Virus record (IMG/VR): IMGVR_UViG_3300025120_014916
Coordinates: 32,001 to 96,000 of that record
Origin: a virus
Reading direction: 5' to 3' (one strand)
Length of the DNA stretch: 64,000 bases
Part shown: positions 8,668 through 64,000 of the stretch, in pieces
How positions within the stretch are numbered: the stretch's first letter is position 1
How the letters are laid out: each line of letters starts with the position of its first letter
Notes under the pieces: model-generated
The model's input: only the letters and a program-made list of their open reading frames with translations
Told to the model about the DNA's origin: nothing
The model's database searches: none
Translations under genes and position numbers: made by a program

Positions 8668-9138
8668 TTATCCAAACGCTAAAGATGCCCATTTTGAAGA
8701 AGCTTCTTCCCCAAACAATTTCTCAGGACTATTACTCTCTACCATTCGCTGCGCAGTATCACCAGAACCTGTGGGTGTAAAACCTTTTTTACTATCTGCT
8801 GCTAATTGATCCTGGAGGGTTGTATGTGCTGTATCAGCCAACATTTCTGCAAGTACAGGATCGTTAGTAATATTTGAAGCTAACTCATCTAGCCTTTTGT
8901 TCTTTTTTATATTCTTACTGACTTCACTGTCATTGTCAATGTTATCTAAGTATTTGGGCGTTTTTGATCTTCTGCTATACTTGCTTTCTGAAACAGACAT
9001 CGCTTCTTTGAGTGTTCTGGCTTTTTTTGCGCTCGAACGCGATGTCTTGGCTTCAGAATTCAAACCTTCAGCTAAGATTTCTATTAAGCATTCTTTAACA
9101 ATACCTTTTATAACGTTTTTGGTTAATTTATCTGCCAT
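8668..9138 (-). CDS. Hypothetical protein, candidate head-internal protein
   Basis: Likely start MADKLTK at 9138 via TAATG overlap with the protease stop (the ORF track starts at 9150). Motif KLTKNVIKGIVKE. Confidence 0.75.
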   Translation of the reverse strand: MADKLTKNVIKGIVKECLIEILAEGLNSEAKTSRSSAKKARTLKEAMSVSESKYSRRSKTPKYLDNIDNDSEVSKNIKKNKRLDELASNITNDPVLAEMLADTAHTTLQDQLAADSKKGFTPTGSGDTAQRMVESNSPEKLFGEEASSKWASLAFG

Positions 9139-9743
9139 TAGTCTTCCCACCTTAATATGTCATTAAACATTCTATTTATTCTATCTGATTTGTTAAAAGA
9201 TTTGTTAAGCTCAGAATTTGATATTTTCTTACCTTCACTCATCATAAAAGCACCTGGGGTGCTAGGTTCGGAAACCATGTCAAAGCAGATTAATTGAAAA
9301 TCTTCTTGAACTATTTGTGTATCGCCTTGGCTTTGTGTAGAACCTACGCCACGTGATGAGATGCCTAGTGTTACGCCACTCTCAATAAGTGACTGTATAA
9401 TTTTACCGCTAGGCGTATCAAGTAACTCTATGACACCGTAGACGTTGTCACCTTGCATCCTAGCTTCTTTTACTACGTGCGAAACATTTTTAAGTTCAAC
9501 AACAGATGATTCTGGGTGGTCACATTCGCCCAGTGCTCTATTTTCTTGAATGAGTTTTTGATAATTAATCACTTCCCGTTCTAAAATTGTTCTGGGGTAT
9601 ATTCTGCCATTTTGATTAAGTGTATTAGCTCTTTGTATAATGCCTTTTAGTAATACCTTTCCGTATTTTTCTTTTGATTCTTTAAGCATCTGCTTGTCAA
9701 TACTAATTGGACACCATTCTGTTAATAATTTTCTATCTGTCAT
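9138..9743 (-). CDS. gp21: Prohead maturation protease, T4 gp21-like
   Basis: NQNGRIYP, ALGECDHP, VSH, LGISSRGVGS and FDMVSEPSTPGA motifs. Confidence 0.95.
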   Translation of the reverse strand: MTDRKLLTEWCPISIDKQMLKESKEKYGKVLLKGIIQRANTLNQNGRIYPRTILEREVINYQKLIQENRALGECDHPESSVVELKNVSHVVKEARMQGDNVYGVIELLDTPSGKIIQSLIESGVTLGISSRGVGSTQSQGDTQIVQEDFQLICFDMVSEPSTPGAFMMSEGKKISNSELNKSFNKSDRINRMFNDILRWED

Positions 9744-14622: not shown

Positions 14623-14885
14623 TTTTTCTCCTCAGGGTTTAACTGACATTTTCTATTATAAATATGCGTTTCTAGAGTTTCTTTATCAGGTCGCCACCCT
14701 TCTTTCCATTCTTTTTTTCTTGCTTCTATAAAAGTTAAGTAACAATCATTACAAGAACCGTCATAATCTTTTGAACTTTTAAAGTCTAATAAAGATGTTA
14801 ATGTAAACTTGCACAACGAACAGAAAAAATATTCATTACTTTGAGATAGTGAATCTTTAAAAATAACTTTATGGTTGATATACAT
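14619..14885 (-). CDS. Small zinc-finger protein
   Basis: 88 aa with CSLC and CNDC; overlaps both neighbours. Confidence 0.7.
   Translation of the reverse strand: MYINHKVIFKDSLSQSNEYFFCSLCKFTLTSLLDFKSSKDYDGSCNDCYLTFIEARKKEWKEGWRPDKETLETHIYNRKCQLNPEEKK
14657..14665 (-). promoter_or_regulatory. Putative late promoter ATATTTATA for the terminase-portal operon
   Basis: Perfect motif inside the 3' end of the Zn-finger gene, 35 nt upstream of ATG 14622. Confidence 0.5.
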
Positions 14886-17800
14886 GTGAATCTACTCCTT
14901 CTTTTATTATTTCTATTGTATTGTCTACAATATCTTTAATCGCATCAATATGAGAAATAATTATAATGTTTTTAAATAATTTTTTAAACGATGTTAGTAG
15001 TTTACTACAAGATTCTAGATTTGTTTCATCTAGCGCACCAAAACCTTCATCAATTATCAGCATGTTTGTCTTAGGAAGCGTTGAGACATTAATCAATGCA
15101 ACCCTTATCGCCAACGATGCCATCATTTTTTCCATACCTGATGCTAATTCAACAATTCTTCTGCTATCACCGTAGTTTATATAGATATCCATAGCATTAC
15201 TTTTTAAATCTGCTTCTAACTCTATAGTGAATCCGACAACGCCTTGTAAGATTTTTGATATCTCTGCATTAATTTTTGGTAATAGTGAGTATAGAAGCTG
15301 AACTGGAATTCCTCTTTTTGAGGTTGCTTGAATAAACATGTCATAAAGTTTAAGATCTTTATTTATTTTCTGATAATCCTCTAAATTCTTTTTGTAGAGA
15401 TCTCTTTTTGCGCGCCATGATGCAGTTTGACTTATCGCAGTGTCTCTTTTAGAATTAATTTGTTTTCTTTCTCTTTCAAGCTGACTGATGCGATTATGTA
15501 TTTCTTGAAACTCGCTCGAGTCTTGCGAATTAAAAAGTACTAATGTGTTTTTGTAATCTTGTTCTGCAGTGTTTAGCTGTCTTTTTAAGTTAACTATAGT
15601 TTGAATTGCTCTTTCAATTTTAATCTTTCTTTCAGATATTTCATCTACAAATTTTGACTTTTTGCTTAGAATTGTATTGTATTGTTCTATTTTCTTTTCG
15701 TAATCTTCTGATAGATTATTTAATTCGTTATCTATGTCATCAACTTTTACAGATAGAAAAGTTACTTTTTCTTCTTGATTGTCAAGTTTTTGCTTATTTC
15801 TATGTGAATTCTTAATGAATTTGCATGTTGGGAAACTGTCGCCACAAGGTACTTGATCTAGTATTTTTACAGATTTAGATATGTTATCTAATTCTTTCCT
15901 CTCAAGTTTTAAATTTCCTTTGAGTTCAATCAAAGATTGCCTGATTTTTCTTTTTGCGTCCCTCTTCTTTTTTATATCTTTTAAATTAAAATTGACTAAA
16001 AAGTTTTCAATCTTTTTAATTTTTGCTGTTTGCTCACTAATAGATTCAACTAGTTCAAACTTTTTATTTTCTAAAATTGATATATCGTTTTTTATCTTTA
16101 TGCAGCTAGCTTCCTTCTTATCAACAGTAGACTGCGGCATGTATTCTATTTCTTCGCTTATGCTCGTTTTCATTTCTTTTATTGTTGATTCAACTTCTTC
16201 TAGCTTGTTTTCACACGAAACCTTTACTAATAAGTGTTCATCAATCTTGCTTAAGCAGTGATTGTATTTATCTTCCCAGTTATCTGATGACAATACATTG
16301 ATTTTACTTCTTAAAGGACTGCACTCTTTTTTTGCCAATTCTGACATTTTATCGAAAACTTCCAAGTCTAAAAAGTTTGATAGGATATTTTTTCTAGCAG
16401 CCGCCTTTTCTTTAATAAAATTATTTATCTCTCCCTGTGAAGCTAAACTTGTCATTAAAAATTCTTCACTGGTGCCTATTGTCTTTCTAAGTATTTTTTC
16501 TGTTTCTCTTCTTTGTTCATCTGTTAAATCCTCTATAATATCTCCCGATCCGTTAAGTCTATAAAACTTTAAAGAGGTAGGTGCCCAAATATCTTTCTTT
16601 GTCTGCTTTTTAATTGTTTCTCTAGATATTCTATAAGGTATTCCTGCTACGCTTATGTCTATGTCTGCTGAACAGCTACTAAATCTTGTGTTGATTATGT
16701 GTAGATTTTTTATAGAGCCACGATCTGATGCATTAAAAAGTCCGTATACTAGACTTCCAATAACAGAAGACTTTCCGCGTGCATTTCTTCCAAATATACC
16801 AGTAATACCCGGCAAATTATCAAAATTAATATAGTTACCTTTACCGTATGAAAAGGTACTATCAAATTTCATGGAGTTGATGGTCCAATTGGAATTTCTA
16901 TTGTCTTCACCAGATTTTGATATTGTGTCAATATATTGGCTAGTCATTAAATTTAACTTTTCCCACTGATGATCATCTAAGTCATGACTGTCATAATAAG
17001 CTTTGATTAATTCAATTTGAACGTTTGAGTCTCTTAGATTTAATGCCTTATCATTTGTTTGATCGACTAGATTTTTTTCAGAATCAAACTTTGTCTCTAT
17101 CTTAAAAACAACTTCTTTTGCGTTATGACTCTTTTTTAACTGTTTTCTCAGTCTTTTAGCATCTGCTTGGGATATAAAATTATCAGCGCGTATTCTAAAT
17201 CTAGATTGGCGCGGATGATATTTGCATTCTATTAGCGTTGTCTTTATATCGCCTTGCCAGTCAACAGTTATGAAAGGATGAATATTTTTTACAGGTATGT
17301 ATTTAACATCAAAGTCGTTTCGGCCTCTTATGTCCCAAAACAAAAAACCCTTATCTGGCGTTTCGCCATAATTTTGCTGAATCGTACTTCCACAATACGC
17401 AACAGTTTTGTGTTTATCTAGAAACTGTCGCTTATGTATGTCTCCTAGTAATGCAAAATCATAATTTTTAAAAAACCCTAAGTTAACTTCGCCGCCTAAT
17501 TGCCAATCAATGTCTGTTAGTGATCCTCGCACGGAGCCATGAAACAATGCGATATTTATATCAGAAGGATCAGGTTTTAGATCGACCCAGTTTTCTTCAT
17601 CAAAACATGAAAAGACGCACCATTTAAAACCTGGATGACCCGTATCATATATACCTGTATCCTTTAAAAGAAATATGTTAGGATTGTCTATAGCGTTTAT
17701 GATTGGTGTGATTGCGTCTTGTCGATCTTTGTTTAATATGAGTCCGTCATGATTGCCTAATATTACATGAACTGGGCATATTGATGCCATCTTATTAAAC

Positions 17801-17991
17801 CACCAACAGAGACTCTGTATTAGCTCTGGTGATATTCCTTGTGTTTTACTATGTACAATATCACCCCCAATGTATATTACGTCAGGTTTGCAATCTCGTG
17901 CTTTTTTAAAAAAATCATTAAATGCTAATATGTACTCTTCATGCCTAGATAGTCCGCGCCAGTGGACGTCTGCAATATGAATAATCTTCAT
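14869..17991 (-). CDS. Fused Mre11/SbcD nuclease - Rad50/SbcC ATPase (gp47-gp46-like)
   Basis: Metallophosphoesterase motifs DVH, GGD, GNHD, HG, GDIH; then Walker A GRNARGKS, coiled coil, signature LASGMEK, Walker B IIDEGFGALD and H-loop ISH in one 1040-aa ORF. Confidence 0.93.
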   Translation of the reverse strand: MKIIHIADVHWRGLSRHEEYILAFNDFFKKARDCKPDVIYIGGDIVHSKTQGISPELIQSLCWWFNKMASICPVHVILGNHDGLILNKDRQDAITPIINAIDNPNIFLLKDTGIYDTGHPGFKWCVFSCFDEENWVDLKPDPSDINIALFHGSVRGSLTDIDWQLGGEVNLGFFKNYDFALLGDIHKRQFLDKHKTVAYCGSTIQQNYGETPDKGFLFWDIRGRNDFDVKYIPVKNIHPFITVDWQGDIKTTLIECKYHPRQSRFRIRADNFISQADAKRLRKQLKKSHNAKEVVFKIETKFDSEKNLVDQTNDKALNLRDSNVQIELIKAYYDSHDLDDHQWEKLNLMTSQYIDTISKSGEDNRNSNWTINSMKFDSTFSYGKGNYINFDNLPGITGIFGRNARGKSSVIGSLVYGLFNASDRGSIKNLHIINTRFSSCSADIDISVAGIPYRISRETIKKQTKKDIWAPTSLKFYRLNGSGDIIEDLTDEQRRETEKILRKTIGTSEEFLMTSLASQGEINNFIKEKAAARKNILSNFLDLEVFDKMSELAKKECSPLRSKINVLSSDNWEDKYNHCLSKIDEHLLVKVSCENKLEEVESTIKEMKTSISEEIEYMPQSTVDKKEASCIKIKNDISILENKKFELVESISEQTAKIKKIENFLVNFNLKDIKKKRDAKRKIRQSLIELKGNLKLERKELDNISKSVKILDQVPCGDSFPTCKFIKNSHRNKQKLDNQEEKVTFLSVKVDDIDNELNNLSEDYEKKIEQYNTILSKKSKFVDEISERKIKIERAIQTIVNLKRQLNTAEQDYKNTLVLFNSQDSSEFQEIHNRISQLERERKQINSKRDTAISQTASWRAKRDLYKKNLEDYQKINKDLKLYDMFIQATSKRGIPVQLLYSLLPKINAEISKILQGVVGFTIELEADLKSNAMDIYINYGDSRRIVELASGMEKMMASLAIRVALINVSTLPKTNMLIIDEGFGALDETNLESCSKLLTSFKKLFKNIIIISHIDAIKDIVDNTIEIIKEGVDSHVYQP

Positions 17992-18004: not shown

Positions 18005-19264
18005 TTAACTCATCTTCACAATAGAATCTCTTTTTTCTTTTGTGAAGTGAAGTTCGTATCCTGGTAATAATACCCAGCATCTTTTAGAAATACAAGTTTT
18101 TGGTTTAGGGGCACAACCATCTGTCATTACAATGCAACCGTCAAACTCAGATGATCTAGATCGAAAGTGATCTTCAACGCAATTAAAACATGTACCACCT
18201 GTTAATGTTCTCATAGGATTTCTATATTTCTGACCTTTTCTCCATGCGTACTCTGAGCCTTTATCAACTGTTGTATCAAAATGAAAGACCTTAAATGATA
18301 CGTTTTTTGCTAGTCCTTCTAAGGCTGAAAAAAACATTGCAATGCCATCATCGCCAACAGATCCGGATTGATCTATGTATATCGCAAGACTGGACGTCCT
18401 TCTTACTCTTGTCCCAGGATGAATATAAGGATATTTTCTATTTATTTTTCTAAAAGTTCTAGATTTTTTTGACTTTTGTTTAGTTCCACAAAAGTACTGG
18501 AGCGTTTTTTTCCAATCAATAACGGTGTCAAACATTAACGATATATCATCTTTTACCAATGTTGAACATGATCCCCAGCCATTCGATCTTGTATTTGCTT
18601 TATTTGCTGATCTCTTTATAATATCTTTAAGTTTTCCTTTCATAATTTCAATATCAGAATCTGTTAATGATCCGTCACCATCTAGATGCACATCAAAACC
18701 TGATGATGTTCCATCACCATATGCTTCTTGAAAAGCGCTTGAGACTTCTTTGTCTTCCTTAAGCTTTTCCATGTACCACTCTGAAGCCTTGCACTTTGGA
18801 AGATCAGCTAAAAACTTAGACATTTTTTTATTTCTTTTAATTATTTCTTCGGGCAAGTCTGACACACTTTTTTCGCTTAACGGTTTTCCCGGAATCAAAC
18901 CACCATCTGGTAGATAGTTTTCTGAAATAAGTGAATTAATTGCGAGATCTGTTGCTATATTCCAAAGTGTGTGTGGATCTTGCTTTCTAGCTACTACGTG
19001 TTGGTATATCAAGTGGTAACATTCATGTTTCATAAGTCCATAAAATTTAAGCTTGGGTAAGCTCGAAACAAAGTCAGGATTCCAATAAAGTGCAAAAGAG
19101 TTGTCTTTTACTGTAACACCCGCAGTCGGAATGTCATACGTCTTTATTTTCTTTAAATTCATAACTATTGATGCAAAAAATGGTTCTTCAAGTAAAAAAT
19201 CAACCATTAATTTATCAAATTTTCTGTCTGTTATCGTATGACCGTTAAATTCTTTAATTTCCAT
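18005..19264 (-). CDS. Putative metallopeptidase plus VWA-domain protein (DUF2201-like)
   Basis: HECYH (HExxH), NIATDLAINS, MIDAS DQSGS, GGT and MTDG motifs; adjacent to a MoxR ATPase. Confidence 0.85.
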   Translation of the reverse strand: MEIKEFNGHTITDRKFDKLMVDFLLEEPFFASIVMNLKKIKTYDIPTAGVTVKDNSFALYWNPDFVSSLPKLKFYGLMKHECYHLIYQHVVARKQDPHTLWNIATDLAINSLISENYLPDGGLIPGKPLSEKSVSDLPEEIIKRNKKMSKFLADLPKCKASEWYMEKLKEDKEVSSAFQEAYGDGTSSGFDVHLDGDGSLTDSDIEIMKGKLKDIIKRSANKANTRSNGWGSCSTLVKDDISLMFDTVIDWKKTLQYFCGTKQKSKKSRTFRKINRKYPYIHPGTRVRRTSSLAIYIDQSGSVGDDGIAMFFSALEGLAKNVSFKVFHFDTTVDKGSEYAWRKGQKYRNPMRTLTGGTCFNCVEDHFRSRSSEFDGCIVMTDGCAPKPKTCISKRCWVLLPGYELHFTKEKRDSIVKMS

Positions 19265-19364: not shown

Positions 19365-20432
19365 TTATTTCATTTCCGGACTGGCTTTGACTATTTTTGT
19401 TACTAGCGTTCCAAAATGTCTATGAAAATTCTTTATCAAATTAAGAATTTTTGTTTCCATAATCAAGTTAAAGAAATTGACAATCATTTCATCCGGACAT
19501 GCTTTAACATAATCTGAAATATTTTTAACTTGCTTAAGTGTAATGGTTTCGTGATTGGCATCAAGATATAACATGATTTTTTCAATTAAATCATTTTTCT
19601 TATCTTCGTTTAACATTGTCATTATGTCGTCTTTTACTTCACCATAACGATCTGCTACATCTTCAGCGCTAAAGCTTCTTGTATAGTCTTGCAAAAATCC
19701 AATAAACTTAGTTGTTGCAGAACTTCCAATAAATCCTAAACTTAGAGGAAATAAAAGTGCCGGCATTGATTTGTTTCCAGCATAATGATTAGGATTTAAA
19801 TTAGCGTGAATGAGTGTTTCACATAATCTATGCCATGACGCAGGATTTGGATATACTTTCCCCGGTTCCATTTCACCAGTATGACGCAAAAAATTTGAAT
19901 GCGTTTTTATAAATTCTTGCACAACAGAAGGAATATCGTCTCTGCTATACGCCCAGTCTAACCAGTCGTCTACAGTAGGCTCTAAGTCTATAGTCCAAAA
20001 TCTACGCAATAGTGCTGGATCCATATCTAGAACTTGGTATTCACTGCCTTCGTTAACTGCTGCATAAACACGTGTCTCTGGGTGCAATTTATGGCCGTTA
20101 AGCTCTCTATCTAAAACGATCTGGAATGCGCATTGTTGTACTTCCAAAGTTGCTCTGTTAAGCTCATCAAAAAATAGTACAACAGGCTCTTTACATGCCC
20201 TTACATACCAGTTTACCGGTGCAAAGCGCGTAACGCCATCAACCAATTCCGGAAGGCCTATAATATCACCTTCAGTCATTTGTGCTAGACGTCTATCGAT
20301 AACCGGCATATTAAGCGCTTTACCGACACTATGAACAATGTGTGATTTTCCAATACCTGTTGGGCCTTTTGCCAAAATAGAAATATGTGCAGGTAGGTTT
20401 GATGCTGACTTGATGAATGTTTTGATATCCAT
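19365..20432 (-). CDS. MoxR-like AAA+ ATPase
   Basis: Walker A GPTGIGKS, Walker B LFFDELNR, DPALLRRF and PNPASW motifs. Confidence 0.92.
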   Translation of the reverse strand: MDIKTFIKSASNLPAHISILAKGPTGIGKSHIVHSVGKALNMPVIDRRLAQMTEGDIIGLPELVDGVTRFAPVNWYVRACKEPVVLFFDELNRATLEVQQCAFQIVLDRELNGHKLHPETRVYAAVNEGSEYQVLDMDPALLRRFWTIDLEPTVDDWLDWAYSRDDIPSVVQEFIKTHSNFLRHTGEMEPGKVYPNPASWHRLCETLIHANLNPNHYAGNKSMPALLFPLSLGFIGSSATTKFIGFLQDYTRSFSAEDVADRYGEVKDDIMTMLNEDKKNDLIEKIMLYLDANHETITLKQVKNISDYVKACPDEMIVNFFNLIMETKILNLIKNFHRHFGTLVTKIVKASPEMK

Positions 20433-20963: not shown

Positions 20964-20992
20964 ATTATATACCAATTATAAGGTGATTGCAT
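20964..20992 (-). promoter_or_regulatory. Sigma70-like promoter ATGCAA-N17-TATAAT
   Basis: Exact 17-nt spacer; upstream of the 142-aa gene. Confidence 0.6.
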
Positions 20993-21008
20993 GAAAATTA
21001 CAAGTATA

Positions 21009-22274
21009 CTATCTTAAAGCATCAAAGTACAAGTTTAATTTATCTATATAGTTATGACCTATTATTTTATTGACCCTTTCAAAGTTATAATTCATGTCTT
21101 TGCAAAGAATTGTTCTGCCAATCCTTCCATTACCATCAGAAAATGGATGTATATGCTCAAAATATGCGTGTCTCATGAATGGGTTTGAAGAATCTAGCGC
21201 GCAAAAATATTGTAGTTCATTGTAAATTTTATTAGTATCTATATATTTGTGACCGGTCGGGGAATTATGTTCAAAGTTTCGAAATTCCCCAGGTTTACCT
21301 CTTGTAAGACACTCAGGAAACATCTGGTTGTGCAAAGCAACAATATTAAAAGGGCTTTCAATATCATTAAACTTATATGAATATACTAGTGGTGCTATTA
21401 AAGTTTTTAAAAAAACACTATCAGTAACATATTCGAGAGGATACCCGCTATAAACTTTTGATGCCGCATTAATGCATTCTTGATATGGTACATTAAAGTT
21501 TTCTTTTTGATTAGACTTGTGAAGAAATGTGGCTAATGCAGTAATTGAATTATCTAGATTGTTTGACTTTTTTATCAAGAAGTTTGCAAAGCTTTTGTGA
21601 TCAGCTTTTTTTAACTTTTCAAAATTATAATTTTTATCTTGTGTTCCTGCAATAAATATTGCAGATAACATTTGGCCTATTATTTTGCCTGATGATATAT
21701 CAGTCGGGTAGTGTTTTCCGTTTTCTATTCTTGACTGGCCAATTAACTCTGCCAACATTTCCAAATCAGGCATCAATTCAGGATAAGAATCTCCAAGAAT
21801 GCCAGCTATAAAATAAGCTATACATGTATGTCCGGACGGAAAAGAAGGCGAAGATGATTCCTTAATTGACTCATAAATACTTCCCTCATCAACCAGGTAT
21901 GTTTTTGGTCGGGGCCGCTTGTGGGTGTACTTAAGTCTAAGAATGATTGTGTCTACATCTTTTAGAATATTTTTTATTTTTTTCCAATCAGGATTTAAAC
22001 TCATTTCTTCACAAAATACATTAAAACAATCTTCAACGGAACTGTCAGAAAGATTTAAAAAGCCGTCATCAAGACTAGGATTACTATAATAAAACTTTAC
22101 TGCGTCTAGATCTCTTTGATGCTCTATAGAGAAAACATCGGGACATGTTAATCGAGGTAGATTTTTTTCACTGTCTATAATAAACTTGCAATCTCTAGCA
22201 ATTCTTTTCTTAAATTTCTTAGGTACAACATTGTCGTCCTTAGTAAGATCAAATAGAGATTGTATCGAATTCAT
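21009..22274 (-). CDS. PAP2-family phosphatase - Fic (AMP-transferase) fusion protein
   Basis: PAP2 motifs KYTHKRPRP (Kx6RP), PSGH and SRIENGKHYPTD (SRx5Hx3D); Fic inhibitory motif SNQKEN; Fic active site HPFSDGNGRIGR. Confidence 0.88.
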   Translation of the reverse strand: MNSIQSLFDLTKDDNVVPKKFKKRIARDCKFIIDSEKNLPRLTCPDVFSIEHQRDLDAVKFYYSNPSLDDGFLNLSDSSVEDCFNVFCEEMSLNPDWKKIKNILKDVDTIILRLKYTHKRPRPKTYLVDEGSIYESIKESSSPSFPSGHTCIAYFIAGILGDSYPELMPDLEMLAELIGQSRIENGKHYPTDISSGKIIGQMLSAIFIAGTQDKNYNFEKLKKADHKSFANFLIKKSNNLDNSITALATFLHKSNQKENFNVPYQECINAASKVYSGYPLEYVTDSVFLKTLIAPLVYSYKFNDIESPFNIVALHNQMFPECLTRGKPGEFRNFEHNSPTGHKYIDTNKIYNELQYFCALDSSNPFMRHAYFEHIHPFSDGNGRIGRTILCKDMNYNFERVNKIIGHNYIDKLNLYFDALR

Positions 22275-22813
22275 TACAGATCGCCTTCAAATTTATCGTA
22301 GTCAAGCGAGTGATACACTTCTGATATATCATCAGATATTTGTGCTATTTTAGTTCTTTGCCAATCATCTAGCTCGTAACCATCAGGAATCATTCCTAAA
22401 AGCTTTTGTGCGTATTTTGCAACTTTATAAAGTGAAGGCTTTGCCATGTAATTGTTGGATTTAATTTCGTGACTGTTAGCGTCGTTAAAACTAATCTGTG
22501 TTGATTTTGCGCCTACATCAAACAAATCATACATTGCATCTATAGAATTGTCTGTGCTATTATTAGAAGATCCTCCGCAACCGCAGTCACCCTCAGTCAA
22601 ACTAGATATTTCATACATGCTACCGCATTGTTCGCAAACTGATTCACCTTCATACATTGCTGACCCACACTCTGTACATGATCTTTTATTCTGCATGCTT
22701 CTATACAAATCTTGTCGACCCGGGTCATCAAAGCCTGATTGTAATGCGTCTTCTTTGATTTTATTTATTTCTTGAATTATAAGCTTTCTAATTATGCTTC
22801 TTTTTAGCTTCAT
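22274..22813 (-). CDS. Hypothetical protein, candidate head-internal protein
   Basis: 179 aa; N-terminal KLKRSIIRKLIIQE motif, CTEC/CEQC/CGC motifs, helical C-terminus; TAATG-coupled to PAP2-Fic. Confidence 0.75.
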   Translation of the reverse strand: MKLKRSIIRKLIIQEINKIKEDALQSGFDDPGRQDLYRSMQNKRSCTECGSAMYEGESVCEQCGSMYEISSLTEGDCGCGGSSNNSTDNSIDAMYDLFDVGAKSTQISFNDANSHEIKSNNYMAKPSLYKVAKYAQKLLGMIPDGYELDDWQRTKIAQISDDISEVYHSLDYDKFEGDL

Positions 22814-22823
22814 GGTATATCCT

Positions 22824-23789
22824 TTAAAACATTGAGCCTGAATTGATGTTCGATATTAAATATCTTACAGACTGAGCAAAATCAAAAGGTTTTGCATTGT
22901 TTATGTAGTATTGTACTTCATCTTTTTTCATGTCACCAAAATCTTTATTTTTGTGAAGTGAGATTCTAGCTGGTACACAATAACTATTAAGTAGCTTAAC
23001 TATATTTAATGATTTTTTTCTGGCATCCGGGTCTAGACAAACAACAACTGGCGTTTTGTTTTTTACAATTTCTTTAAAAAGCAGGTAGTCTTCACCAAGC
23101 CAACTGCCTAAAATGCAAGTGGCATTGTCAGGAGCATTCATTAAATCAAATACGCCCTCTACAAGAATCAATTCTTTTTTAAAGTCTAAATTAAATTGTC
23201 TAAATATCACTTCTTTTCTGGAAACTGTACAGTTTTTGTATCTTCTTGGATTTTTTCTATTTATAGATCGCGAAACAAAATAATTTAAATTGCCGATAGC
23301 ATCATGCGAAGGAAAGATAACTCTGTCTTTAAACTCATAGCTGTTACTAACGCCTATGCAGAATTTATGTAAATGATCGTTACTCATTCCGCGTTCTTTT
23401 AAATAGTTGATATGATATCGATATCTTTGCATGCCGCGAGAACTTAAGTTTGTCAATAGTGTAAAGTCATCAGGAAGTTCAACCTTTTTTTCTTCTTCCT
23501 CTTCTATTTCTTTTTTAAACCCGCCATACGAATCTGACAGTTTTTTCGCGGTATCTTTGTTTTTTGCAAATTTAAATGCGGGCCGGCCAATATTTCTACC
23601 TTTTGACTCGCAAACCCAGCAGTGATACACACCGCTTTCTAATCGTATTGATAATTTCTTCTTTGAAGATATTTTTCCTTTTTCTTTACAGAAAGGACAT
23701 GCGATAGACACGTTTTTTTCGTCCCCAGATAGGGAATATTTACCAAAGCATGCTTCAATTAAATTTAATTTTTGAGATAATGTAATCAT
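22824..23789 (-). CDS. DNA primase (Zn-finger plus TOPRIM)
   Basis: CPFC...CWVC zinc-binding domain, RVIFP, LVEGVFD, DPDA and DFGDM TOPRIM motifs. Confidence 0.9.
   Translation of the reverse strand: MITLSQKLNLIEACFGKYSLSGDEKNVSIACPFCKEKGKISSKKKLSIRLESGVYHCWVCESKGRNIGRPAFKFAKNKDTAKKLSDSYGGFKKEIEEEEEKKVELPDDFTLLTNLSSRGMQRYRYHINYLKERGMSNDHLHKFCIGVSNSYEFKDRVIFPSHDAIGNLNYFVSRSINRKNPRRYKNCTVSRKEVIFRQFNLDFKKELILVEGVFDLMNAPDNATCILGSWLGEDYLLFKEIVKNKTPVVVCLDPDARKKSLNIVKLLNSYCVPARISLHKNKDFGDMKKDEVQYYINNAKPFDFAQSVRYLISNINSGSMF
22855..22863 (-). promoter_or_regulatory. Putative late promoter, variant ATATTTAAT
   Basis: Inside the primase 3' end, 42 nt upstream of ATG 22813. Confidence 0.4.
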
Positions 23790-23795
23790 GTGTAT

Positions 23796-23824
23796 ATTAT
23801 ATCAAAACATTAATCTTTTTTCAA
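23796..23824 (-). promoter_or_regulatory. Sigma70 promoter TTGAAA-N17-TATAAT, probably giving a leaderless primase mRNA
   Basis: The -10 box ends 6 nt before the primase ATG; no SD in between. Confidence 0.6.
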
Positions 23825-24351
23825 ATTTTATTATACGCTCTTCCAATAACATATGCATCTGCCATATCATAACAAGCAGACAGCTCTCTAGTCTTGCCTT
23901 TGCTTGGGCCACTTTTCATAATCTTTGTTGGCCATTTTACATTTTCTTGTAACTTTACCCAATCTAAAACCTGTTCTTTGGTTGAAGCATCAGATTTTCT
24001 ATTAATTTTTAAACCTACAGACTTTCTAGCAGAATTAACATTAATTGATTCTATTTCAACATTAAGCATCTCATGGCATATCCACCTAACAGTTCCGTTA
24101 AACTGGGCTAATGTCATTAAAGTTTTTGCTGAGCTTAGTCCTGGCCTAAATGCTTGCAAGTTCTCTTCAATTCCAATTTTTGTAATATTATACTTTTTAT
24201 TTATCTTAGATATCTCAGATTTGATGTGAGCAGCTTTTTTGTAAAAGTCCTTATGTTTACTTAGTTCTATATAACCGATGTCTCTAAGTTCATCCTGGTC
24301 AAACACACAGTATCCTGTGCAACTAGTTGATACGTCTAGTGATAATAACAT
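23821..24351 (-). CDS. RuvC-like Holliday junction resolvase
   Basis: LSLDVSTSCTGY, IGIEE and DMADAYVIG RNase H-fold acidic motifs. Confidence 0.82.
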   Translation of the reverse strand: MLLSLDVSTSCTGYCVFDQDELRDIGYIELSKHKDFYKKAAHIKSEISKINKKYNITKIGIEENLQAFRPGLSSAKTLMTLAQFNGTVRWICHEMLNVEIESINVNSARKSVGLKINRKSDASTKEQVLDWVKLQENVKWPTKIMKSGPSKGKTRELSACYDMADAYVIGRAYNKI

Positions 24352-26732
24352 TAAAAATCCTGTTTAAGTCTGATAATAAATTCATCTTCCTCAGTCTTTG
24401 GAATCGGTTGAGAAAAATTTGCCTTCATTATAATATTAAAGTTATCATCATGAATGTTAACTGCTGAAATGTAAACAGTTGTTAAATCTCTATCAGAAAC
24501 AGCATTTGTTGGGGGATTAGGTCTAAATGTTTTATTGCTCGAGCTATTTATCTGGCCTTTTTCACAAGGTACGTTTAATATCATTGTGTGAATGTTTTGA
24601 TCACCTTTAAACTTTATATCTGTCTTGTCTTTTCCAAAATAAGGCAGGTGAGGGGTTTTTAAAACAACCATACCTTCATGATAAAATATGTCACCAATAT
24701 TATTCCATCTTGCTTGTTTTGTTTTACAATCTGCCCTGTAAAGACTTCCAGCACCATTGTCTTTAATCTTTATTTTTATCTTGCCTTCTGATCCTGTCAA
24801 GTTTTCATCATATATTTCTAAAGTCTCTTCTGTTATTTTGTTACCATAATACAGATTAGATATGTCAAAAATAGTTGTTTCATTACTGGAAAGATCTCTT
24901 GTTCTTTGAGCTATTGTAAGAACGCTACCCGGAGCTGATCCGGGGTTTTCCGGGCTAGCTCCAACTATTTGATCAAAGATAGACCCAGCTTGGAAAACTA
25001 ATCCTGGGTACAAAGAAGACGCAGGAATCAAGTCATCTAAATTTATCCTGCCATAATCTACTACACTTCCATTGTTAACATAAGACAAGCTAGCACTTTG
25101 CGCAGATATCGAAAGCGGATAATAGTCAGGATAAAACAGACCATTATCACATGGCAGCAGTGAAAGATTTCTCTTTTTTAGTGAGCCGGTGTTATAGACA
25201 AAGTCATCAGCAGTTATGTTTAATACAGTTTCTGTCATAACAGAACCGGTTAGCGATTGCAATCTCGGGTATTCGCCTTTTATAAATTCTCTTACAAAAT
25301 TTTCTAAATTTATCATCTTGCCGCCTACTCCAAAAGAGTACGCAGTATTAATAGGATCGTCTGTCTTTGTCTTTATTGTCTGAAAAGGCGTGACAATAAC
25401 TTCTCTTGTTCTCGAGTCAGGATAAAAGAAGGGGGGCACATAAAATATAAGATCAGAATACAAACTATCATCTGACACATCACAGCCTTCTTTAGTTGTC
25501 TTGACTTGATTGACACCTTGAATCGCTAGATTGTTTATTTCATGCGGGTTTAAAGCGCGCTTGAATAGCTTAACATCATGTAATTCTGCATTTAGCGGAT
25601 GATTTAATAAACTTTCTTGATTTAAAGGCTCACTTGAAATAGAAGTCAATTGCGTTAAACCTTGAGCTACAGAAACTGTCGAGTTAAAAAATGTTTCGGC
25701 TACTGAAGGGCTACCATTGTAGTAATTACCAATGCATATTATTTTATTATTACTAGTTGTAATAGAACTAGAAGGGATATGAAAATCAGTGTAATTTTTG
25801 TCAATACCAATACTGCCTGATGCATTATTAAAATTTGGATCCCAGTACACAGTTACATGATGCCAATTATTCTTTCTTAAAGCAAAAGAGGAAGTAAATA
25901 TCAAATCACTTTGACCATTAATGTTATTTAAATTTATACTTGCAGGCGTAATGTCAGCACTATGACTAAGTTGTAATAATATTTTATAATCATCAACTAG
26001 ATTATACTCATCTCTCAAAGAGCCTGTAACTAAACTTACAGCAATTGACGATGACATGTGAAATATTGTTCCTGCTGAAAACTCAGCGCTGGGTGTTACA
26101 TTGTCATACCTGGGATTGATCCAGAAATCAAGTGTAAACCCAGCTGATGGGTTGTACACATCATTTTTGTTTGGGTAGATTAAACAACTATCGTCGGGAG
26201 TATTGTTTGTTGTATAAAAATTAAGACAGTTAAAGTTTGTATAGTGTATTCCAGAGTCTGGATATCTGTGTTTGTGATATGGGTATAATATGTTGTTTAA
26301 ATTTCGTTTAACAACATGGTTTAAATTAAACTTTAAAGGTGTGTCAAATCTAAAAATATCAAGAAGTTTGGAAAATCTAATGTTTTTCGGTGCTTTGTTT
26401 GATGCATCTAAATACTCAGACATGTGACTATGTATGTCAATACCCGGAGATGAGTATTTAGATGCAGATGTGATTGTTTTTACTTTTGCATCACTTAAAA
26501 CATTATCAATATTAAAATCTAACTCGTTAAACGCAATATTATCTTTTTTTAAATTGACCTCAGTGATATTATCACTAGCAATATTGCGAATACATTTTGA
26601 TCTTATAGGTGAAACATAAACACTACCAGTCGCAGGTATTTCTCCGATTGAAGAAGAAATGAAATGTACCTGTGGTCTGGTTTTGATAGTTGTTGTTTCA
26701 AACAATTCACGTGATAGTTTAATAAAGGACAT
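24351..26732 (-). CDS. Virion structural protein with LamG/concanavalin-like domain
   Basis: FTLDFWINP, WHHVTV and ELHDVKLF motifs; C-terminal module paralogous to 26734..27939. Confidence 0.75.
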   Translation of the reverse strand: MSFIKLSRELFETTTIKTRPQVHFISSSIGEIPATGSVYVSPIRSKCIRNIASDNITEVNLKKDNIAFNELDFNIDNVLSDAKVKTITSASKYSSPGIDIHSHMSEYLDASNKAPKNIRFSKLLDIFRFDTPLKFNLNHVVKRNLNNILYPYHKHRYPDSGIHYTNFNCLNFYTTNNTPDDSCLIYPNKNDVYNPSAGFTLDFWINPRYDNVTPSAEFSAGTIFHMSSSIAVSLVTGSLRDEYNLVDDYKILLQLSHSADITPASINLNNINGQSDLIFTSSFALRKNNWHHVTVYWDPNFNNASGSIGIDKNYTDFHIPSSSITTSNNKIICIGNYYNGSPSVAETFFNSTVSVAQGLTQLTSISSEPLNQESLLNHPLNAELHDVKLFKRALNPHEINNLAIQGVNQVKTTKEGCDVSDDSLYSDLIFYVPPFFYPDSRTREVIVTPFQTIKTKTDDPINTAYSFGVGGKMINLENFVREFIKGEYPRLQSLTGSVMTETVLNITADDFVYNTGSLKKRNLSLLPCDNGLFYPDYYPLSISAQSASLSYVNNGSVVDYGRINLDDLIPASSLYPGLVFQAGSIFDQIVGASPENPGSAPGSVLTIAQRTRDLSSNETTIFDISNLYYGNKITEETLEIYDENLTGSEGKIKIKIKDNGAGSLYRADCKTKQARWNNIGDIFYHEGMVVLKTPHLPYFGKDKTDIKFKGDQNIHTMILNVPCEKGQINSSSNKTFRPNPPTNAVSDRDLTTVYISAVNIHDDNFNIIMKANFSQPIPKTEEDEFIIRLKQDF

Positions 26733-26733: not shown

Positions 26734-27939
26734 TTAAAAATCTAGTCTGACTCTCATAGTAAGGTCTTTTTCATCATTTTTCTCAACAGGCCTACTTAAT
26801 TTTGAAACTGCCAACAATTGCTCATTTGCATCATAAAGTCCTACTGTTGTTATAAAAGAAAAAGCTTTTTGGATTGATTGTTGCGATTCGTCAATTACTA
26901 CAATTCTACCTTCAGAATCTGTGTAAGTTGGATTTGAAGAGAAGTTAAATTCATCTGCTGTAGCTCTACAAAATATCAAGGTTGAATTGATTTGTGTATT
27001 GTTTTGAAAAGTTAAAAATGTTTGTGAACCGCTTCCAAATCTTGTGGTTGCAAAATGATCTATACAATCATCCATCGATGCTGACACGATAAAGTTTGGA
27101 ATTAGCTTATCTTCCATTACCACTTTGCCACTCGCAGCGCCCACAGCATTAATAGAACCGCTTATTAATTGAGAGCCTGAACAGATTTTTTCAATGTCAA
27201 GCACTACTATACCTTTTTGATAGAATATTAATCCTAATGTTTCTGATGTGTTTGAACTATTAACAATGTTGCCCACATCTCCACCAAAGCTTGATCTTTC
27301 AATACTGCTAGCAGCGCCTACGTCTGTTAGTATAATAGAACCGCTAATTGAAGAATTGAAGACGTTACTCTGGCCGCCTACAGGTAGTGCACCATCTTCA
27401 GCCTTCTCTGCTGCTGATGCGCTTCGATACATCCTCATTGCAAATGTTTCTCGCTTAATTCCATCACGGACAAATAATCTTTTAAAGTTAAGAAAAAGTG
27501 CTGTATCAATCTTATCAGCATCAGTTGCACTACCAAAAGGAGCTGTGAACTGTTGTGTATTATCTCCTAATAAATCCTGTGTAAACTGATTATAAACTGC
27601 AACTTTCTCTCTCATCATTAATGACTTACTAGGGAATAGAAGCTTGTCATTAATGTCAGTGCCTGTAGATGAATTAGTAACTATATCGGAAGTTTTAAAC
27701 ACACCCAATGTTATGTCAAACAACTCATTTGATGTTTGAAGTGTAAAGTCTTGATCGTAAACTGTCTGATAGATAGAGCTAGTGACGCCTGGATCTGCTG
27801 TTGTTCCCGTCACAAAAACTTTAAACTTTTTTCTAGTTAGTGATCCGGATATATCTTCTTCAACAAAATCTATTAACTGATTTAACGTTGATCTTGTGGT
27901 TTTAATATCAGCGCTTGATATTGTTTTAAAAGTTGCCAT
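26734..27939 (-). CDS. Virion structural protein (baseplate/tail)
   Basis: 401 aa; C-terminal ITTVGLYD...LLAVSKLSRPVEK...RLDF module; in a structural operon. Confidence 0.7.
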   Translation of the reverse strand: MATFKTISSADIKTTRSTLNQLIDFVEEDISGSLTRKKFKVFVTGTTADPGVTSSIYQTVYDQDFTLQTSNELFDITLGVFKTSDIVTNSSTGTDINDKLLFPSKSLMMREKVAVYNQFTQDLLGDNTQQFTAPFGSATDADKIDTALFLNFKRLFVRDGIKRETFAMRMYRSASAAEKAEDGALPVGGQSNVFNSSISGSIILTDVGAASSIERSSFGGDVGNIVNSSNTSETLGLIFYQKGIVVLDIEKICSGSQLISGSINAVGAASGKVVMEDKLIPNFIVSASMDDCIDHFATTRFGSGSQTFLTFQNNTQINSTLIFCRATADEFNFSSNPTYTDSEGRIVVIDESQQSIQKAFSFITTVGLYDANEQLLAVSKLSRPVEKNDEKDLTMRVRLDF

Positions 27940-27949
27940 TATTTTTTCC

Positions 27950-28636
27950 TTATGATATTCTGCATTCTATAGTTTTTGTCAAGCCAGAATTAATACCTAT
28001 AACTTTTATATAAGTTCTTATGTAAGATGAACCAGCTACGCTGTATGTATTGAACGTGCTTGTTGCAAAAGATTTAATTCTAAGCGGTATTTTTGCTGAA
28101 ATTGAATCACCTGTTGACGATTGACTAGTTGGCATTCTATACACTGCAATATTATCTGTGTATCTTACGTCTGGTGTTTCACCAACAATACCTAAAAACA
28201 AATGATTGATTTCAACCAAAACCTCAGGATCAAGTAAATCATATTCGATTGTTGTACCCGTCTGTGAAGCAATTTCAATATTCAATGAGAGTATTGAGAC
28301 GTTTGATTTTCTATCAAATGTAATTGGATTTGTTTTTGATGTCAAAGTCAAAGTTGGCATGTGAGTCAAAAACTCATTTGATATACTCACTAGCGGATAT
28401 TTCAACCCTAAGCTTCCAACTGTCATAGCTTCCATTACAGGCGTGTTTTTTTCTATTTTTTCTTTTCCCACTGTTCTACCGAATTGTTGAATAATGCCAT
28501 AGTCAATTTCATCATCAGCTAGCGCAAATTGATATATTGAAAAAGATCCATCATTTTTTGCTAGTGCTTGTCTTCCCAAATCTGTTAAAACAGCATCAAC
28601 AATAATGTTATTTGTTGAATGATCTAAAAATCCCAT
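27950..28636 (-). CDS. Virion structural protein, tail-collar-like N-terminus
   Basis: DAVLTDLGRQALAKNDGSF...FALADDEIDY; paralogous N-terminus in 38627..39685. Confidence 0.7.
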   Translation of the reverse strand: MGFLDHSTNNIIVDAVLTDLGRQALAKNDGSFSIYQFALADDEIDYGIIQQFGRTVGKEKIEKNTPVMEAMTVGSLGLKYPLVSISNEFLTHMPTLTLTSKTNPITFDRKSNVSILSLNIEIASQTGTTIEYDLLDPEVLVEINHLFLGIVGETPDVRYTDNIAVYRMPTSQSSTGDSISAKIPLRIKSFATSTFNTYSVAGSSYIRTYIKVIGINSGLTKTIECRIS

Positions 28637-30781: not shown

Positions 30782-33700
30782 CTAATCTATTTTAGACGAT
30801 TTTAAAATTGCAACTTCAATAACAAAAGAAGATACATCTGTCTTGTTACTGTCTAGACCTTTTTTAAATTCCAATATTTTCTTTGCAGGACTATAATTGA
30901 ACATTTCATTAAAAGATGATTTACGCTGTACCTCATCCATCCCTGTTACAGTACTGAGCTTATTAGCACTTATCATTTTTTTATTTGTTAGTGTGAGAAC
31001 GGGTATAGATTCAGGCTTGTATAGAACTGTTGTGTCCATATTATCTTCTGATGTTTTAAGTACAAAGTCTCTTTCTGAAACAGGAATACTGAATATTCTT
31101 TGAAAACATTGCGTTGCTAAACAGCTTTTAAGTCGCGATTCTGATGAAAAGTACAACGTATTCCTTATTGATTTAAAAACTCTATAAAATTTTTGTGCTT
31201 CTTCCGGAATTATGTTTGCTGCTGGGTATCTATTAATAACTTCTCTTGCCAATTCCTCGTAATTTAATTTGGCCGCATCATCAACTGTTCCTTCAAATAA
31301 TACATCTCTATCGATGGGAAATAAAGTTTCAGATATATCAATTCCTGTTGTTGAATGTGTATAAAGTTTTAAATAGTGATCATAAATAAGATTTTCGAGA
31401 ATTGATTCGTATACGTCTTCATCGTATTCTGACTCTTTTTTAGCTGCTGTACTAGCATTCTCAGGCAAATCTACATCTTCGATTATTGTGATTCCGTTTA
31501 AACCAATCCCGTATCCTGGCTTAATGCTACCTGCAGTTAATATTTCAATATTTTCTTTAATATTTTTAATTGACCAATTATCATCATACTTTTCTAGGTG
31601 GTTTCCAAGCGTAAATTTACCTGGCGCTGATACCGTCTTGTAACTTTCAGAAGTTTTAAAAGAAGCTACATGCTTTGCCATATTAAATACGTAAGTTCTA
31701 GATTGATATTTTATTTGTGGATCTAGATCATTCTTTTTTGTTATATGAATAGCTATGTTGTTACTATTATAATATTCTATCTCACCTGTCTTATTATACG
31801 CCTCGTTTTGAAGTGCCTTTAGCATGCCATGAGGAATACCAATATGGAAAATGCTTTTTCTGCCAAGTAAATCATCTGTATCAGAAGTTAAACCTCTACC
31901 TTTTTCAGAAAATAACTTTGCCATAATTTTTAATTCTCTTATGTCATAGCTCTCTAGCTTAAAGTAAGGATAAACTGATATGCCTTCTGGATTTGCTAGC
32001 TCATCTTCGTCTGATCTAAAGTCTAATAAATAATTTTTTTGATAATTTTTTAATAATACGCCTGCTGTACCACTATTTAAAAAAGCAAAACCTGTTTTAA
32101 CAAACCCAACCTTTCTTAAATATTCTAAAGCGATTATTTCACCAGGTGATATTTCAGAAGACGTTCCTGCCAGTACAGACTCTGCTCTTCGAATAGCCTC
32201 ACGTATTTCGACTGTATTTTGTTTAAGATACGCTAAATTTCTCAATATAGCACTGCGCCTATACATCATGGAATTTCTTACTTGTGAGATCATAGTAATA
32301 GCACTCGAATATGAGTGATCATACACGCTTTTAAGCTCTGAATATTTTCCATTTGTATCATAGTCACTATTTTTACTTTTTCTTTCTAATGCATCTGCCA
32401 TAGCAATCCAGCATGTCGGGTAATGCTTTATGATCATATGTTTACCTTTTCCACCGTATCTTACTACCAAGCTTTTGTACATAATTCTAGAAAAGAATAG
32501 CGAAAATAAAGCATATCGAGAGGCGGTGTTTGTTTTAAATATCCCACCATACTCTCCTGCTTTTTCATTCCAGTCAAATTGATATGGCTCATAATAGCTC
32601 TCATTTTCTCCTATGAGAGCATCACCTAGTTGATCATCATTGTCATCGCTAAACCAATTTGATGGGTTGAGCGCGCTTAAAAATTCAGCAAATTTATCAA
32701 TTAGATCAACAAGATGCCACGCTTTAAACGTACCATTTCCAGGTTTTGCCTTGATCATATAATTTTGTCCAGATTGGTTGCCAAAGCACAAAGACATGAT
32801 CTTTGACATAATTGATGGATCATTTAGCTCTGTTGATGTTTTCGGTTTAGCTGAGTCTGGTATTAGCGCAGCATTTGATAGTAGAATTGTTTCAAATGTT
32901 CCTGATTTTGAAAAACCTATGCCTGCCGGACGTCCTTCCGATGCAGGCATAGTACCCTGATTGGAAATTAAGACTGCAGTACCTGCTGCCGTTGCTGATA
33001 CAGCTAATACAGCTACCCCTAGTGAGCTAAATATTGCTGCGCTAGCTGCACCGATCAGTGTTGTCGTTAATAATGGACCGGTGACGACCACACCACTAGC
33101 TGTTGTTGTGGATACAATGCCCAGTGCGCCGGCACCTAAGAATGTTGAACCGTATGAAGCTGCTATCGCTACGCCGGCGATTGAGATTGCGCCAAGTCCT
33201 ACAATAGCTACTGCTGCTATAAGTAATACATCCCATGCCTCGAGACCCGAATCGATGTTTAACCTCTCGCCTAATTTGACGTCTGTGTCATTTTGGTGAA
33301 TTTTAGTATAGCTATAGTCGTCGTGTACGTTGTCTATTCTTCCTGCTCTGCCAAAGTCAATTCCGACAAACGTGTCATTGTCATCATCATCTTTTGAATC
33401 ATTAAACGATGCTGATCCGTTACCAAACCCGTTATAAATGATGCTTTTGTACTTTTTTGATTTGTCTGCTGGGTATTTTGCATCATCTTTTATTTTTACA
33501 GAATCGGAAGAACCATCCTTAAGAATACTTTTCATGTTGACTGTAAAGAGTTTGCACCATATTCTGTCTTCTGTATAATATGATCTTTCTGCTCCAAAAA
33601 TAACTGCTGCTTCTTCGGATGCCCACTTAGCGTTTTTAATGTTTGGATCTAGATCTGGATTAGCATTTACTAACATGTGTTGGTTTGTGGCGTTTGAGAC

Positions 33701-63947: not shown

Positions 63948-64000
63948 TTCTATTTTCCTTTCTGTTTAAAGATTGACGTAACAACATTTCAGCATACTCA
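63940..64000 (-). CDS. C-terminal fragment of an upstream CDS
   Basis: ...EYAEMLLRQSLNRKENRND*, overlapping the methyltransferase start. The ending loosely resembles CMP-sugar synthetases, but it is too short to call. Confidence 0.45.
   Translation of the reverse strand, partial: EYAEMLLRQSLNRKENRND

Follow-up and report, generated by a model that had tools for sequence, protein, structure and literature searches.

The PAP2-Fic gene and its predicted fold

We analyzed a stretch of 64,000 nucleotides (nt), referred to below as the window, which comprises bases 32001-96000 of the 136-kb IMG/VR contig IMGVR_UViG_3300025120_014916, and focused on one gene on its minus strand in which a phosphatase domain of the PAP2 superfamily is joined to a Fic domain (PAP2-Fic). 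The features of this gene are listed here, and counts in brackets refer to 109 aligned full-length homologs in which both halves are present and which range from 86% down to 29% identity.

21009..22274, minus strand: PAP2-Fic open reading frame (ORF; P0001), open and uninterrupted, 421 amino acids (aa)
21636..22208, minus strand: soluble PAP2 domain resembling class A acid phosphatases, aa ~23-213, from structure superposition and a PDB profile match (E ~1e-17)
21906..21932, minus strand: PAP2 motif C1, K115-x6-R122-P123 (K115, R122 and P123 invariant, 109/109)
21828..21839, minus strand: PAP2 motif C2, P146-S-G-H149 (invariant, 109/109)
21699..21734, minus strand: PAP2 motif C3, S181-R182-x5-H188-x3-D192 (R182, H188 and D192 invariant, 109/109)
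21012..21584, minus strand: class II Fic domain including the inhibitory helix, aa ~231-421, from fold and profile matches
21498..21515, minus strand: inhibitory motif S254-N-Q-K-E258-N259 (S/T 97/109, E 89/109)
21114..21149, minus strand: Fic active-site motif H376-P-F-S-D-G-N-G-R-I-G-R387 (H 92/109, N382 108/109, R384 and R387 95/109 each)

Both domains come from well-known families, and it is their combination that differs. Judged against the curated gathering cut-offs of Pfam both domains pass, with PAP2 (PF01569) matching aa 114-214 at an E value of 3.3e-15 and 56.4 bits (cut-off 27.2) and Fic (PF02661) matching aa 311-390 at an E value of 1.9e-8 and 35.5 bits (cut-off 24). The ORF carries the complete signature of the PAP2 superfamily (KX6RP, PSGH and SRX5HX3D) as well as the Fic/Fido site pattern HxFx(D/E)GN(G/K)RxxR. 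An earlier description of the window made from its letters (the sequence-only reading) had quoted the three PAP2 motifs, SNQKEN and HPFxDGNGRxxR and had considered both domains apparently intact. We found every one of these motifs at the position given there, and the two domains are indeed intact. In class II Fic proteins the motif (S/T)xxxE(G/N) is said to lie on a helix that precedes the Fic core within the same chain. Since the inhibitory E258 precedes the catalytic H376 by 118 residues in one chain, we assign the Fic half to class II. The family PF22778, which had been pre-assigned to some homologs, was not recovered on scanning P0014.

Structure prediction had been proposed as a check, and AlphaFold2, supplied with the 109 homologs, gave a confident two-domain model with a predicted local distance difference test (pLDDT) of 93.7 and a predicted template modelling score (pTM) of 0.89, in which the scores drop only at residues 1-20 and in the linker around 211-222. 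The high pTM implies that the two domains are packed in a fixed relative arrangement in the model. We superposed the PAP2 domain with VIA on class A nonspecific acid phosphatases (E. blattae EB-NSAP 1d2t/1eoi, Salmonella PhoN 2a96/2akc, Morganella PhoC 9qcj and the P. aeruginosa enzyme 7f17) and obtained Z scores of 17.4-18.2 and root-mean-square deviations of 2.6-2.9 A, with 177-184 of 211-226 residues aligned. In these comparisons, for which Foldseek was run as well, vanadium haloperoxidases and membrane PAP2 enzymes scored below the class A enzymes. With the latter the phage domain shares the all-helical soluble PAP2 fold over almost the entire chain and the three catalytic motifs, but it is only 20-22% identical to them, lacks a signal peptide, is fused to Fic and is restricted to phages. 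By likeness to class A enzymes H188 is the expected phospho-His nucleophile. The vanadium-dependent haloperoxidases (4cit, 3w36 and 1qi9) have the same set of active-site residues and the same helical core (Z 15-16), but they are 10-14% identical, about twice as large and carry a second helical bundle, whereas the phage domain matches the acid phosphatases in size and topology.

The sequence-only reading had seen no obvious membrane-spanning helices, and hydropathy values support this: we found no membrane helix in PAP2-Fic, the highest mean of any 19 residues on the Kyte-Doolittle scale being 1.21 (family maximum 1.28), so the PAP2 half is soluble. Nor did we find a signal peptide, as the first 20 residues are hydrophilic (mean -0.57). 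The PAP2 half thus shows one hallmark of class A, a soluble domain of ~25 kDa that matches solved enzymes end to end, but not another, which is secretion or periplasmic location with an N-terminal signal peptide. Because the N-terminus is hydrophilic and a hydrophobic segment is absent family-wide, we call it class-A-like in fold and do not count it as a member of the periplasmic enzyme class. The same observations bear on the idea that the gene is an auxiliary metabolic gene which scavenges phosphate in phosphate-poor sea water for phage DNA synthesis. Marine phages often carry genes for phosphate acquisition, the family is marine and its fold is that of a nonspecific acid phosphatase. However, a protein with neither signal peptide nor membrane anchor is not periplasmic, where class A enzymes scavenge, and PAP2-Fic is constantly fused to Fic and encoded by a fixed core gene beside replication genes rather than by a variable island gene, which makes this explanation quite improbable to us.

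The closest solved relative of the Fic half is the class II Fic protein of C. difficile (wild type 4x2e; mutant S31A/E35A 4x2c/4x2d). VIA superposition of the Fic domain gave a Z score of 15.3 to 4x2d with 179 residues aligned and of 14.2-15.3 to FICD, and a profile built from the Fic half and 12 stand-alone relatives matched 4x2e with an E value of 1.4e-13. The family motif S-N-x-I-E-G aligns column for column with HSNKIEGS of the C. difficile protein, in agreement with the auto-inhibited class II domain that the sequence-only reading had postulated; the N and E of the motif are invariant in 13 Fic-half relatives, and in the deposited mutant S31A/E35A Ala stands at the two positions that align with the S and E of the family. 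In both proteins the inhibitory motif lies N-terminal to HPFxDGNGRxGR, but C. difficile Fic is a stand-alone bacterial protein of ~235 aa with ~19% identity, whereas in the phage protein a phosphatase domain precedes Fic. A Glu-gated Fic site is also present in FICD/HYPE (4u04, 6i7g, 7b7z) and in Enterococcus faecalis Fic, where the equivalent Glu represses AMPylation and is needed for de-AMPylation (10.1101/323253, PMC6826200), and a Glu-bearing site has been proposed as the signature of AMPylation/de-AMPylation bifunctionality at one site (bioRxiv 10.1101/323253). Unlike PAP2-Fic neither of them has a phosphatase partner; FICD in addition has TPR domains, a membrane anchor and a location in the lumen of the endoplasmic reticulum, and E. 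faecalis Fic belongs to class III with a C-terminal Glu.

A Fic domain in a phage could also point to a Fic-type toxin for superinfection exclusion or to a phage-borne defence gene similar to SoFic, and the protein does match the SoFic model of PADLOC (E 4.5e-11) as well as PDC-S04 models. These matches are confined to the generic Fic core at aa 311-394, the SoFic match covering aa 311-389 and positions 119-207 of the 361 of the model. Moreover, the gene is a syntenic core gene of a lytic-type T4-like genome in a context of phage replication and morphogenesis, and several lineages retain it with a dead Fic site, so that we give this explanation hardly any credence.

Distribution of the fusion and unequal conservation of its halves

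With a word-indexed search we found 118 full-length clusters (at 90% identity) that are 86% to 30% identical to PAP2-Fic and that come almost entirely from marine metagenomes (Tara, JGI, ENA and Logan), on contigs of up to 196 kb. An exhaustive profile search of 1.84 billion representatives returned 119 proteins at E <= 1e-30, of which ~25 are full-length fusions at the 50%-identity level, and the ESM Atlas contains two PAP2+Fic clusters of 54 and 156 members, all viral where the taxon is known. No match was obtained when the protein was compared by tblastn with 50,697 deposited phage records, a set from which close relatives of this genome may be missing. A family-specific pattern applied to the genomes of ~185,000 cellular species yielded no confirmed relative, although highly divergent members could escape this single pattern. 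The same fusion occurs in the same gene order in 14 independent viral contigs. We considered an assembly artefact or a chance joining and ruled it out by the many independent contigs that show the identical fusion and order. As 109 homologs carry both halves and 14 independent contigs share the gene order, the fusion is real, and the artefact that the sequence-only reading had named as a reason to drop its proposal does not apply. Its attribution of the gene to a phage likewise stands, and the family is viral only. PAP2-Fic is a genuine conserved protein of a lineage of uncultivated large marine T4-like phages.

The architecture had further been considered unrecognized. We found no published description of it, and neither a survey of jumbo phages nor a survey of Fic proteins mentions it; however, the architecture is not unique, since it represents a sizeable family that automatic pipelines have already labelled. 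The ESM Atlas cluster of 156 members bears the automatic label 'Fic/DOC family/PAP2 superfamily domain-containing protein', and other homologs appear in their sources as 'hypothetical protein', 'acid phosphatase (class A)' or 'fido', none of them being named or characterized. So far as we searched, the combination, its restriction to phages, its status as a core gene and the recurrent joint loss of the Fic His and Glu described below have not been reported.

The two halves differ strongly in conservation. While the listed PAP2 residues are invariant, including all four of P146-S-G-H149, the catalytic H376 of Fic remains in 92 of the 109 homologs, R384 and R387 each in 95, and the inhibitory E258 in 89. 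Of the 17 members that have lost the His, 15 have no inhibitory Glu either, usually through a short deletion. In four other members the Fic motif is kept but Lys replaces the Glu, and in one more the replacing residue is Asp. In a tree calculated from the PAP2 half only, the Fic His was lost about six times, at least three to four times on well-supported branches, and the loss of Glu follows that of His, never the reverse. At matched PAP2 divergence the identity of the Fic half is 0.22-0.26 in the degenerate members versus 0.34-0.37 in the others, and the degenerate members still retain the Fic half at full length. We read this pattern as suggesting that the phosphatase would be the constant, selected and indispensable activity, that Fic catalysis and its Glu gate would form one functional unit which is dispensable, and that the Fic fold may have an additional, non-catalytic role.

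Next to the fusion, each half has relatives elsewhere. The PAP2 module (aa ~15-215) is common as a stand-alone protein of ~200-250 aa. It is also fused to NUDIX in P0213 (379 aa) and in P0152, which additionally contains P-loop kinase-like domains, to an HNH domain in P0218 and, together with a leader peptide, to an HD domain in P0212 (381 aa; the HD_4 match lies under the Pfam cut-off), and it stands at the C-terminus of a portal protein in P0205 (843 aa). The Fic module in turn occurs as a stand-alone protein of ~210 aa and is fused to a CCA/polyA-type nucleotidyltransferase in P0157 (1166 aa) and to LRV/HEAT repeats in P0151. Most other partner regions of the two modules match no Pfam family. 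The stand-alone Fic loci (L016-L019) contain no adjacent PAP2 gene, that is, no split form. Both halves of PAP2-Fic are mobile modules, and their fusions suggest that uncultivated phages have a pool of effector modules in common. Since every identifiable partner acts on nucleotide pyrophosphate bonds, our best guess, a tentative one, is that the substrate of PAP2 may be a nucleotide-derived phosphate ester or pyrophosphate.

These data allow us to weigh a chemically coupled writer and eraser, in which PAP2 would hydrolyze the pyrophosphate (PPi) released by AMPylation and so make the reaction irreversible, or would process the AMP or phosphate on the same target. The predicted packing of the two domains is rigid (pTM 0.89), class A acid phosphatases accept PPi, and all identified catalytic partners of the PAP2 module (NUDIX, HD and Fic) release PPi or a phosphomonoester. 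However, in every lineage where the His and Arg residues of Fic and its inhibitory Glu have gone, PAP2 is invariant and hence under selection without Fic catalysis, and the module is common as a stand-alone protein as well. Because the loss of Fic catalysis has left PAP2 unchanged, we regard such coupling as unlikely, and the phosphatase appears indispensable and is unlikely to be just a remover of PPi. The suggestion of the sequence-only reading that PPi removal drives AMPylation is for this reason weakened as a sole role. As the same reading proposed, the phosphatase may instead reverse a phosphate mark or destroy phosphorylated nucleotide signals.

Our preferred reading, with a probability of roughly 0.55, is that PAP2-Fic is a soluble effector directed at the host, in which an indispensable His-phosphatase is combined with an accessory Glu-gated AMP-transferase/de-AMPylase, the two working in parallel or on one target complex. 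By analogy to solved enzymes the PAP2 half would hydrolyze a soluble phosphomonoester or pyrophosphate through a phospho-His on H188, with H149 as the proton donor. The Fic half would transfer AMP at a site around H376 that is gated by E258 on a helix ~120 residues upstream, and as in other Fic proteins it may provide regulated AMPylation and/or de-AMPylation of a protein hydroxyl. If both activities serve one target complex, the Fic fold could double as a scaffold. The protein would act in the cytoplasm and would be made from a host-type promoter in an operon with a primase and a leader-tagged Zn-ribbon protein (see below).

Several observations weigh against this effector. Intact motifs are no proof of activity, and the joint loss of His and Glu amounts to just three independent contrasts on supported branches, which are too few for a statistical test. 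The argument for a nucleotide substrate is built on a handful of fusions, given that most partners match no Pfam family and HD_4 stays under its cut-off. Finally, promoter-like sites are not enriched across the region (48 found versus 40 +/- 6 expected).

Fic proteins have been studied mainly as bacterial toxins, as secreted effectors and in the form of the metazoan BiP regulator FICD, and soluble PAP2 enzymes are known chiefly as periplasmic acid phosphatases. Here both enzymes are found in one cytoplasmic or virion-borne phage protein, which is encoded by a core gene of an abundant uncultivated marine lineage. The repeated loss of the Fic site and the inhibitory Glu beside an intact phosphatase is a natural experiment that yields biochemical predictions for the variants H188A, H376A and E258G.

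Gene order and putative promoters around PAP2-Fic

The source contig is estimated by CheckV to be 40% complete and encodes a T4-type terminase, a portal protein, a major head protein, a baseplate wedge protein and a gp21-type prohead protease. Its nearest deposited relatives, with terminase identities of 37-40%, are the Microcystis phage Mel-JY01, the Flavobacterium 'immuto' phages and an uncultured phage of 484 kb. In the 14 related viral contigs, which are up to 236 kb long, the order of ten genes is a 401-aa protein, a LamG-domain protein, a RuvC-like resolvase, the primase, a Zn-ribbon protein, PAP2-Fic, a small protein, a MoxR ATPase, a peptidase-vWA protein and SbcCD. The following neighbouring features were located in the window:

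23796..23824, minus strand: sigma70-like promoter TTGAAA-17-(TG)TATAAT, matching at 11 of 12 positions, in the RuvC/primase gap just upstream of the primase; a putative promoter
22824..23789, minus strand: DnaG-type primase, first gene of the apparent operon (Pfam DNAG_N and Zn_ribbon_DnaG; phrog_47)
22274..22813, minus strand: 179-aa Zn-ribbon protein upstream of PAP2-Fic, with leader MKLKRSIIRKLIIQE, Cys-rich Zn-ribbons and a conserved C-terminal helical hairpin
20975..21003, minus strand: second sigma70-like site, TTGTAA-17-TATAAT, directly after the PAP2-Fic stop and before a 142-aa gene
19365-20432, minus strand: MoxR-type AAA+ ATPase, a conserved downstream neighbour
18005-19264, minus strand: metallopeptidase-vWA protein, a conserved downstream neighbour

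The position and sequence of the sigma70-like promoter of the primase are kept in most related loci, where TTGAAAA-N16/17-TAnAAT was found at equivalent positions (L003-L007, L009, L010, L012 and L014). Its -10 element ends only 6-8 nt before the primase ATG, and we take this short distance to suggest that the primase mRNA may be leaderless or nearly so. The TAA of the Zn-ribbon gene overlaps the ATG of PAP2-Fic (TAATG) and so couples the two genes; the same overlap occurs in six other loci. With a sigma70-like site upstream, this overlap and a second promoter-like site after the stop, PAP2-Fic seems to close a primase operon that would be read by the host polymerase, as far as matches to a consensus can indicate.

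In the Zn-ribbon protein we observed that the C-terminal ~55 residues (YMAKPxLYKVAKYAQKLL..DDWQR..VYHSLDY) are conserved across loci far above PAP2-Fic, and that the Cys-rich middle region is very variable in length between loci. The AlphaFold2 model of this protein is poor (pLDDT 55) and confident only in the leader helix and the C-terminal helical hairpin. Within the contig the C-terminal domain has no paralog; the leader alone is shared with other ORFs.

The MoxR/vWA pair is known from T4-like jumbo phages, where it has been proposed to aid virion assembly (PMC7824862). Further along the conserved gene order, 14869-17991 (minus strand) encodes a 1040-aa SbcD-SbcC fusion, with an SbcD-like PHROG match at aa 1-379 and an SbcC-like one at aa 275-1033, and this fusion is kept in all related loci at 51-60% identity. 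On the other side, 24351-26732 (minus strand) encodes a 793-aa Laminin_G_3/ConA-like protein that matches no PHROG and whose place upstream of the RuvC-like gene is the same in every locus.

The N-terminal peptide and possible delivery with the virion

Another possibility concerns the delivery of PAP2-Fic and is compatible with the enzymology of the soluble effector described above. The N-terminal peptide could act as a capsid-targeting sequence (CTS) like that of T4 Alt, so that the protein would be loaded into the prohead core, be injected together with the DNA and enter the host before phage gene expression, where at time zero it might remove phosphate from host targets and add AMP to them or take it off. 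Its companion on this route may be the leader-tagged Zn-ribbon protein that the overlapping gene upstream encodes. The features concerned are listed here; window positions are contig positions minus 32000.

22242..22274, minus strand: conserved flexible N-terminal peptide of PAP2-Fic, aa 1-11 MNSIQSLFDLT (pLDDT 62-71), candidate Alt-type capsid-targeting sequence
9138..9743, minus strand: T4 gp21-type prohead protease (Pfam Peptidase_S77, E 4.5e-27)
8338-8574, 8668-9150 and 22274-22813, minus strand: ORFs of the window with a shared N-terminal leader
31516-31884, 31906-32304, 128898-129542, 129545-131647, 131666-132340, 133284-133685 and 134850-135869, contig positions: further leader-tagged ORFs

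T4 Alt and the internal proteins of T-even phages bear a short peptide at the N-terminus that targets them to the capsid, and they pass into the host by ejection (PMC9026906, PMC3012670); the internal proteins are diverse effectors with the CTS as their sole common part (PMC3012670). In T4, positions 4 and 7 of the CTS govern targeting and positions 8 and 10 processing, a residue other than Glu (Asp) at position 10 stops cleavage and leaves targeting, and gp21 cuts at (L/I)-x-E (PMC9026906). The N-terminus of the fusion family is conserved, flexible in the model, and has the consensus M-x-S-I-x-x-L-F-x-E-T (I/L4 81/83, L7 71/83, F8 81/83, E10 46/83 and T11 64/83), which is identical to the start of T4 Alt, M-E-L-I-T-E-L-F-D-E, at the four key positions 4, 7, 8 and 10. 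The hydrophobic positions 4 and 7 of a CTS are thus present throughout most of the family. At the site expected for gp21, the family has F8-x-E10, and the copy in the window reads F8-D-L10. The Phe at residue 8 is not the Leu/Ile of the gp21 cleavage motif, and the Leu at position 10 of the window's own copy replaces the Glu. The similarity moreover covers just ten residues, Alt was picked for the comparison after the motif had been seen, and a relaxed form of the N-terminal pattern also occurs in 4 of ~1,170 unrelated ORFs. Apart from this peptide T4 Alt, an ADP-ribosyltransferase, shares no homology with PAP2-Fic, and packaging of the latter is putative.

A different leader, approximately M-K-L-x-R-K-x-I-R-K-L-I-x-Q-E, is shared by at least eight otherwise unrelated ORFs of the contig and always contains (L/I)-x-E. 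Its carriers include the Zn-ribbon protein just upstream of PAP2-Fic and two small proteins that adjoin the prohead protease, and the same leader is found on many ORFs of the related loci L017 and L018. It is likely a propeptide system for capsid targeting or for the prohead protease. Among the stand-alone Fic relatives, the closest ones (L017, L018, P0170 and P0185) have this leader and are surrounded by further genes tagged with it, and the leader is present on ~10 of 108 stand-alone PAP2 relatives compared to a background of 1.7% per 40-residue window; in the fusion family itself it is nearly absent (1/118). In L019 the gene for a 1026-aa Fic protein has the prohead protease on one side and the scaffold and capsid genes on the other.

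Delivery of the Alt type is favoured by the family consensus, by the prohead protease of the same phage, by the leaders on the stand-alone Fic and PAP2 relatives, by the Fic-containing protein within the head gene module of L019 and by the PAP2 module joined to a portal protein in P0205. However, PAP2-Fic is encoded in a primase operon that follows a host-type promoter and not in the head module, so that its expression looks early rather than late, and the T4 late promoter motif TATAAATA is not enriched in the window (9 matches versus 10.3 expected). Together with the differences within the peptide itself this makes injection a lead that is on balance doubtful. If true, PAP2-Fic would be the first Fic or PAP2 effector that a phage injects, and marine T4-like phages would use a shared pool of leader-tagged enzymatic cargo (Fic, PAP2, NUDIX and HD). 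Should the CTS reading hold, it would extend the paradigm of T4 internal proteins and Alt to new enzyme classes and provide a sequence rule for spotting injected effectors in metagenomic phages.

Other parts of the window also showed unusual genes. The major head protein (3712-5661, minus strand) has 649 aa, of which the T4-type capsid family matches aa 385-631 alone, leaving an N-terminal region of ~380 residues with no assigned family. Between 28706 and 54682 (minus strand) we observed eight large ORFs of 354-1674 aa that match no PHROG at E <= 1e-5, and two further unmatched ORFs lie at 26734-28636. Together they flank the only baseplate wedge gene that could be recognized (50517-52364) and are probably a highly divergent tail and fibre module. 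From 56100 to the end of the window at 64000, and onward to ~110 kb of the contig, there is a long run of genes of the glycosyltransferase and sugar-nucleotide type. This carbohydrate island includes two glycosyltransferases of phrog_2170 and Rossmann-type N-termini and is unusually large for a phage.

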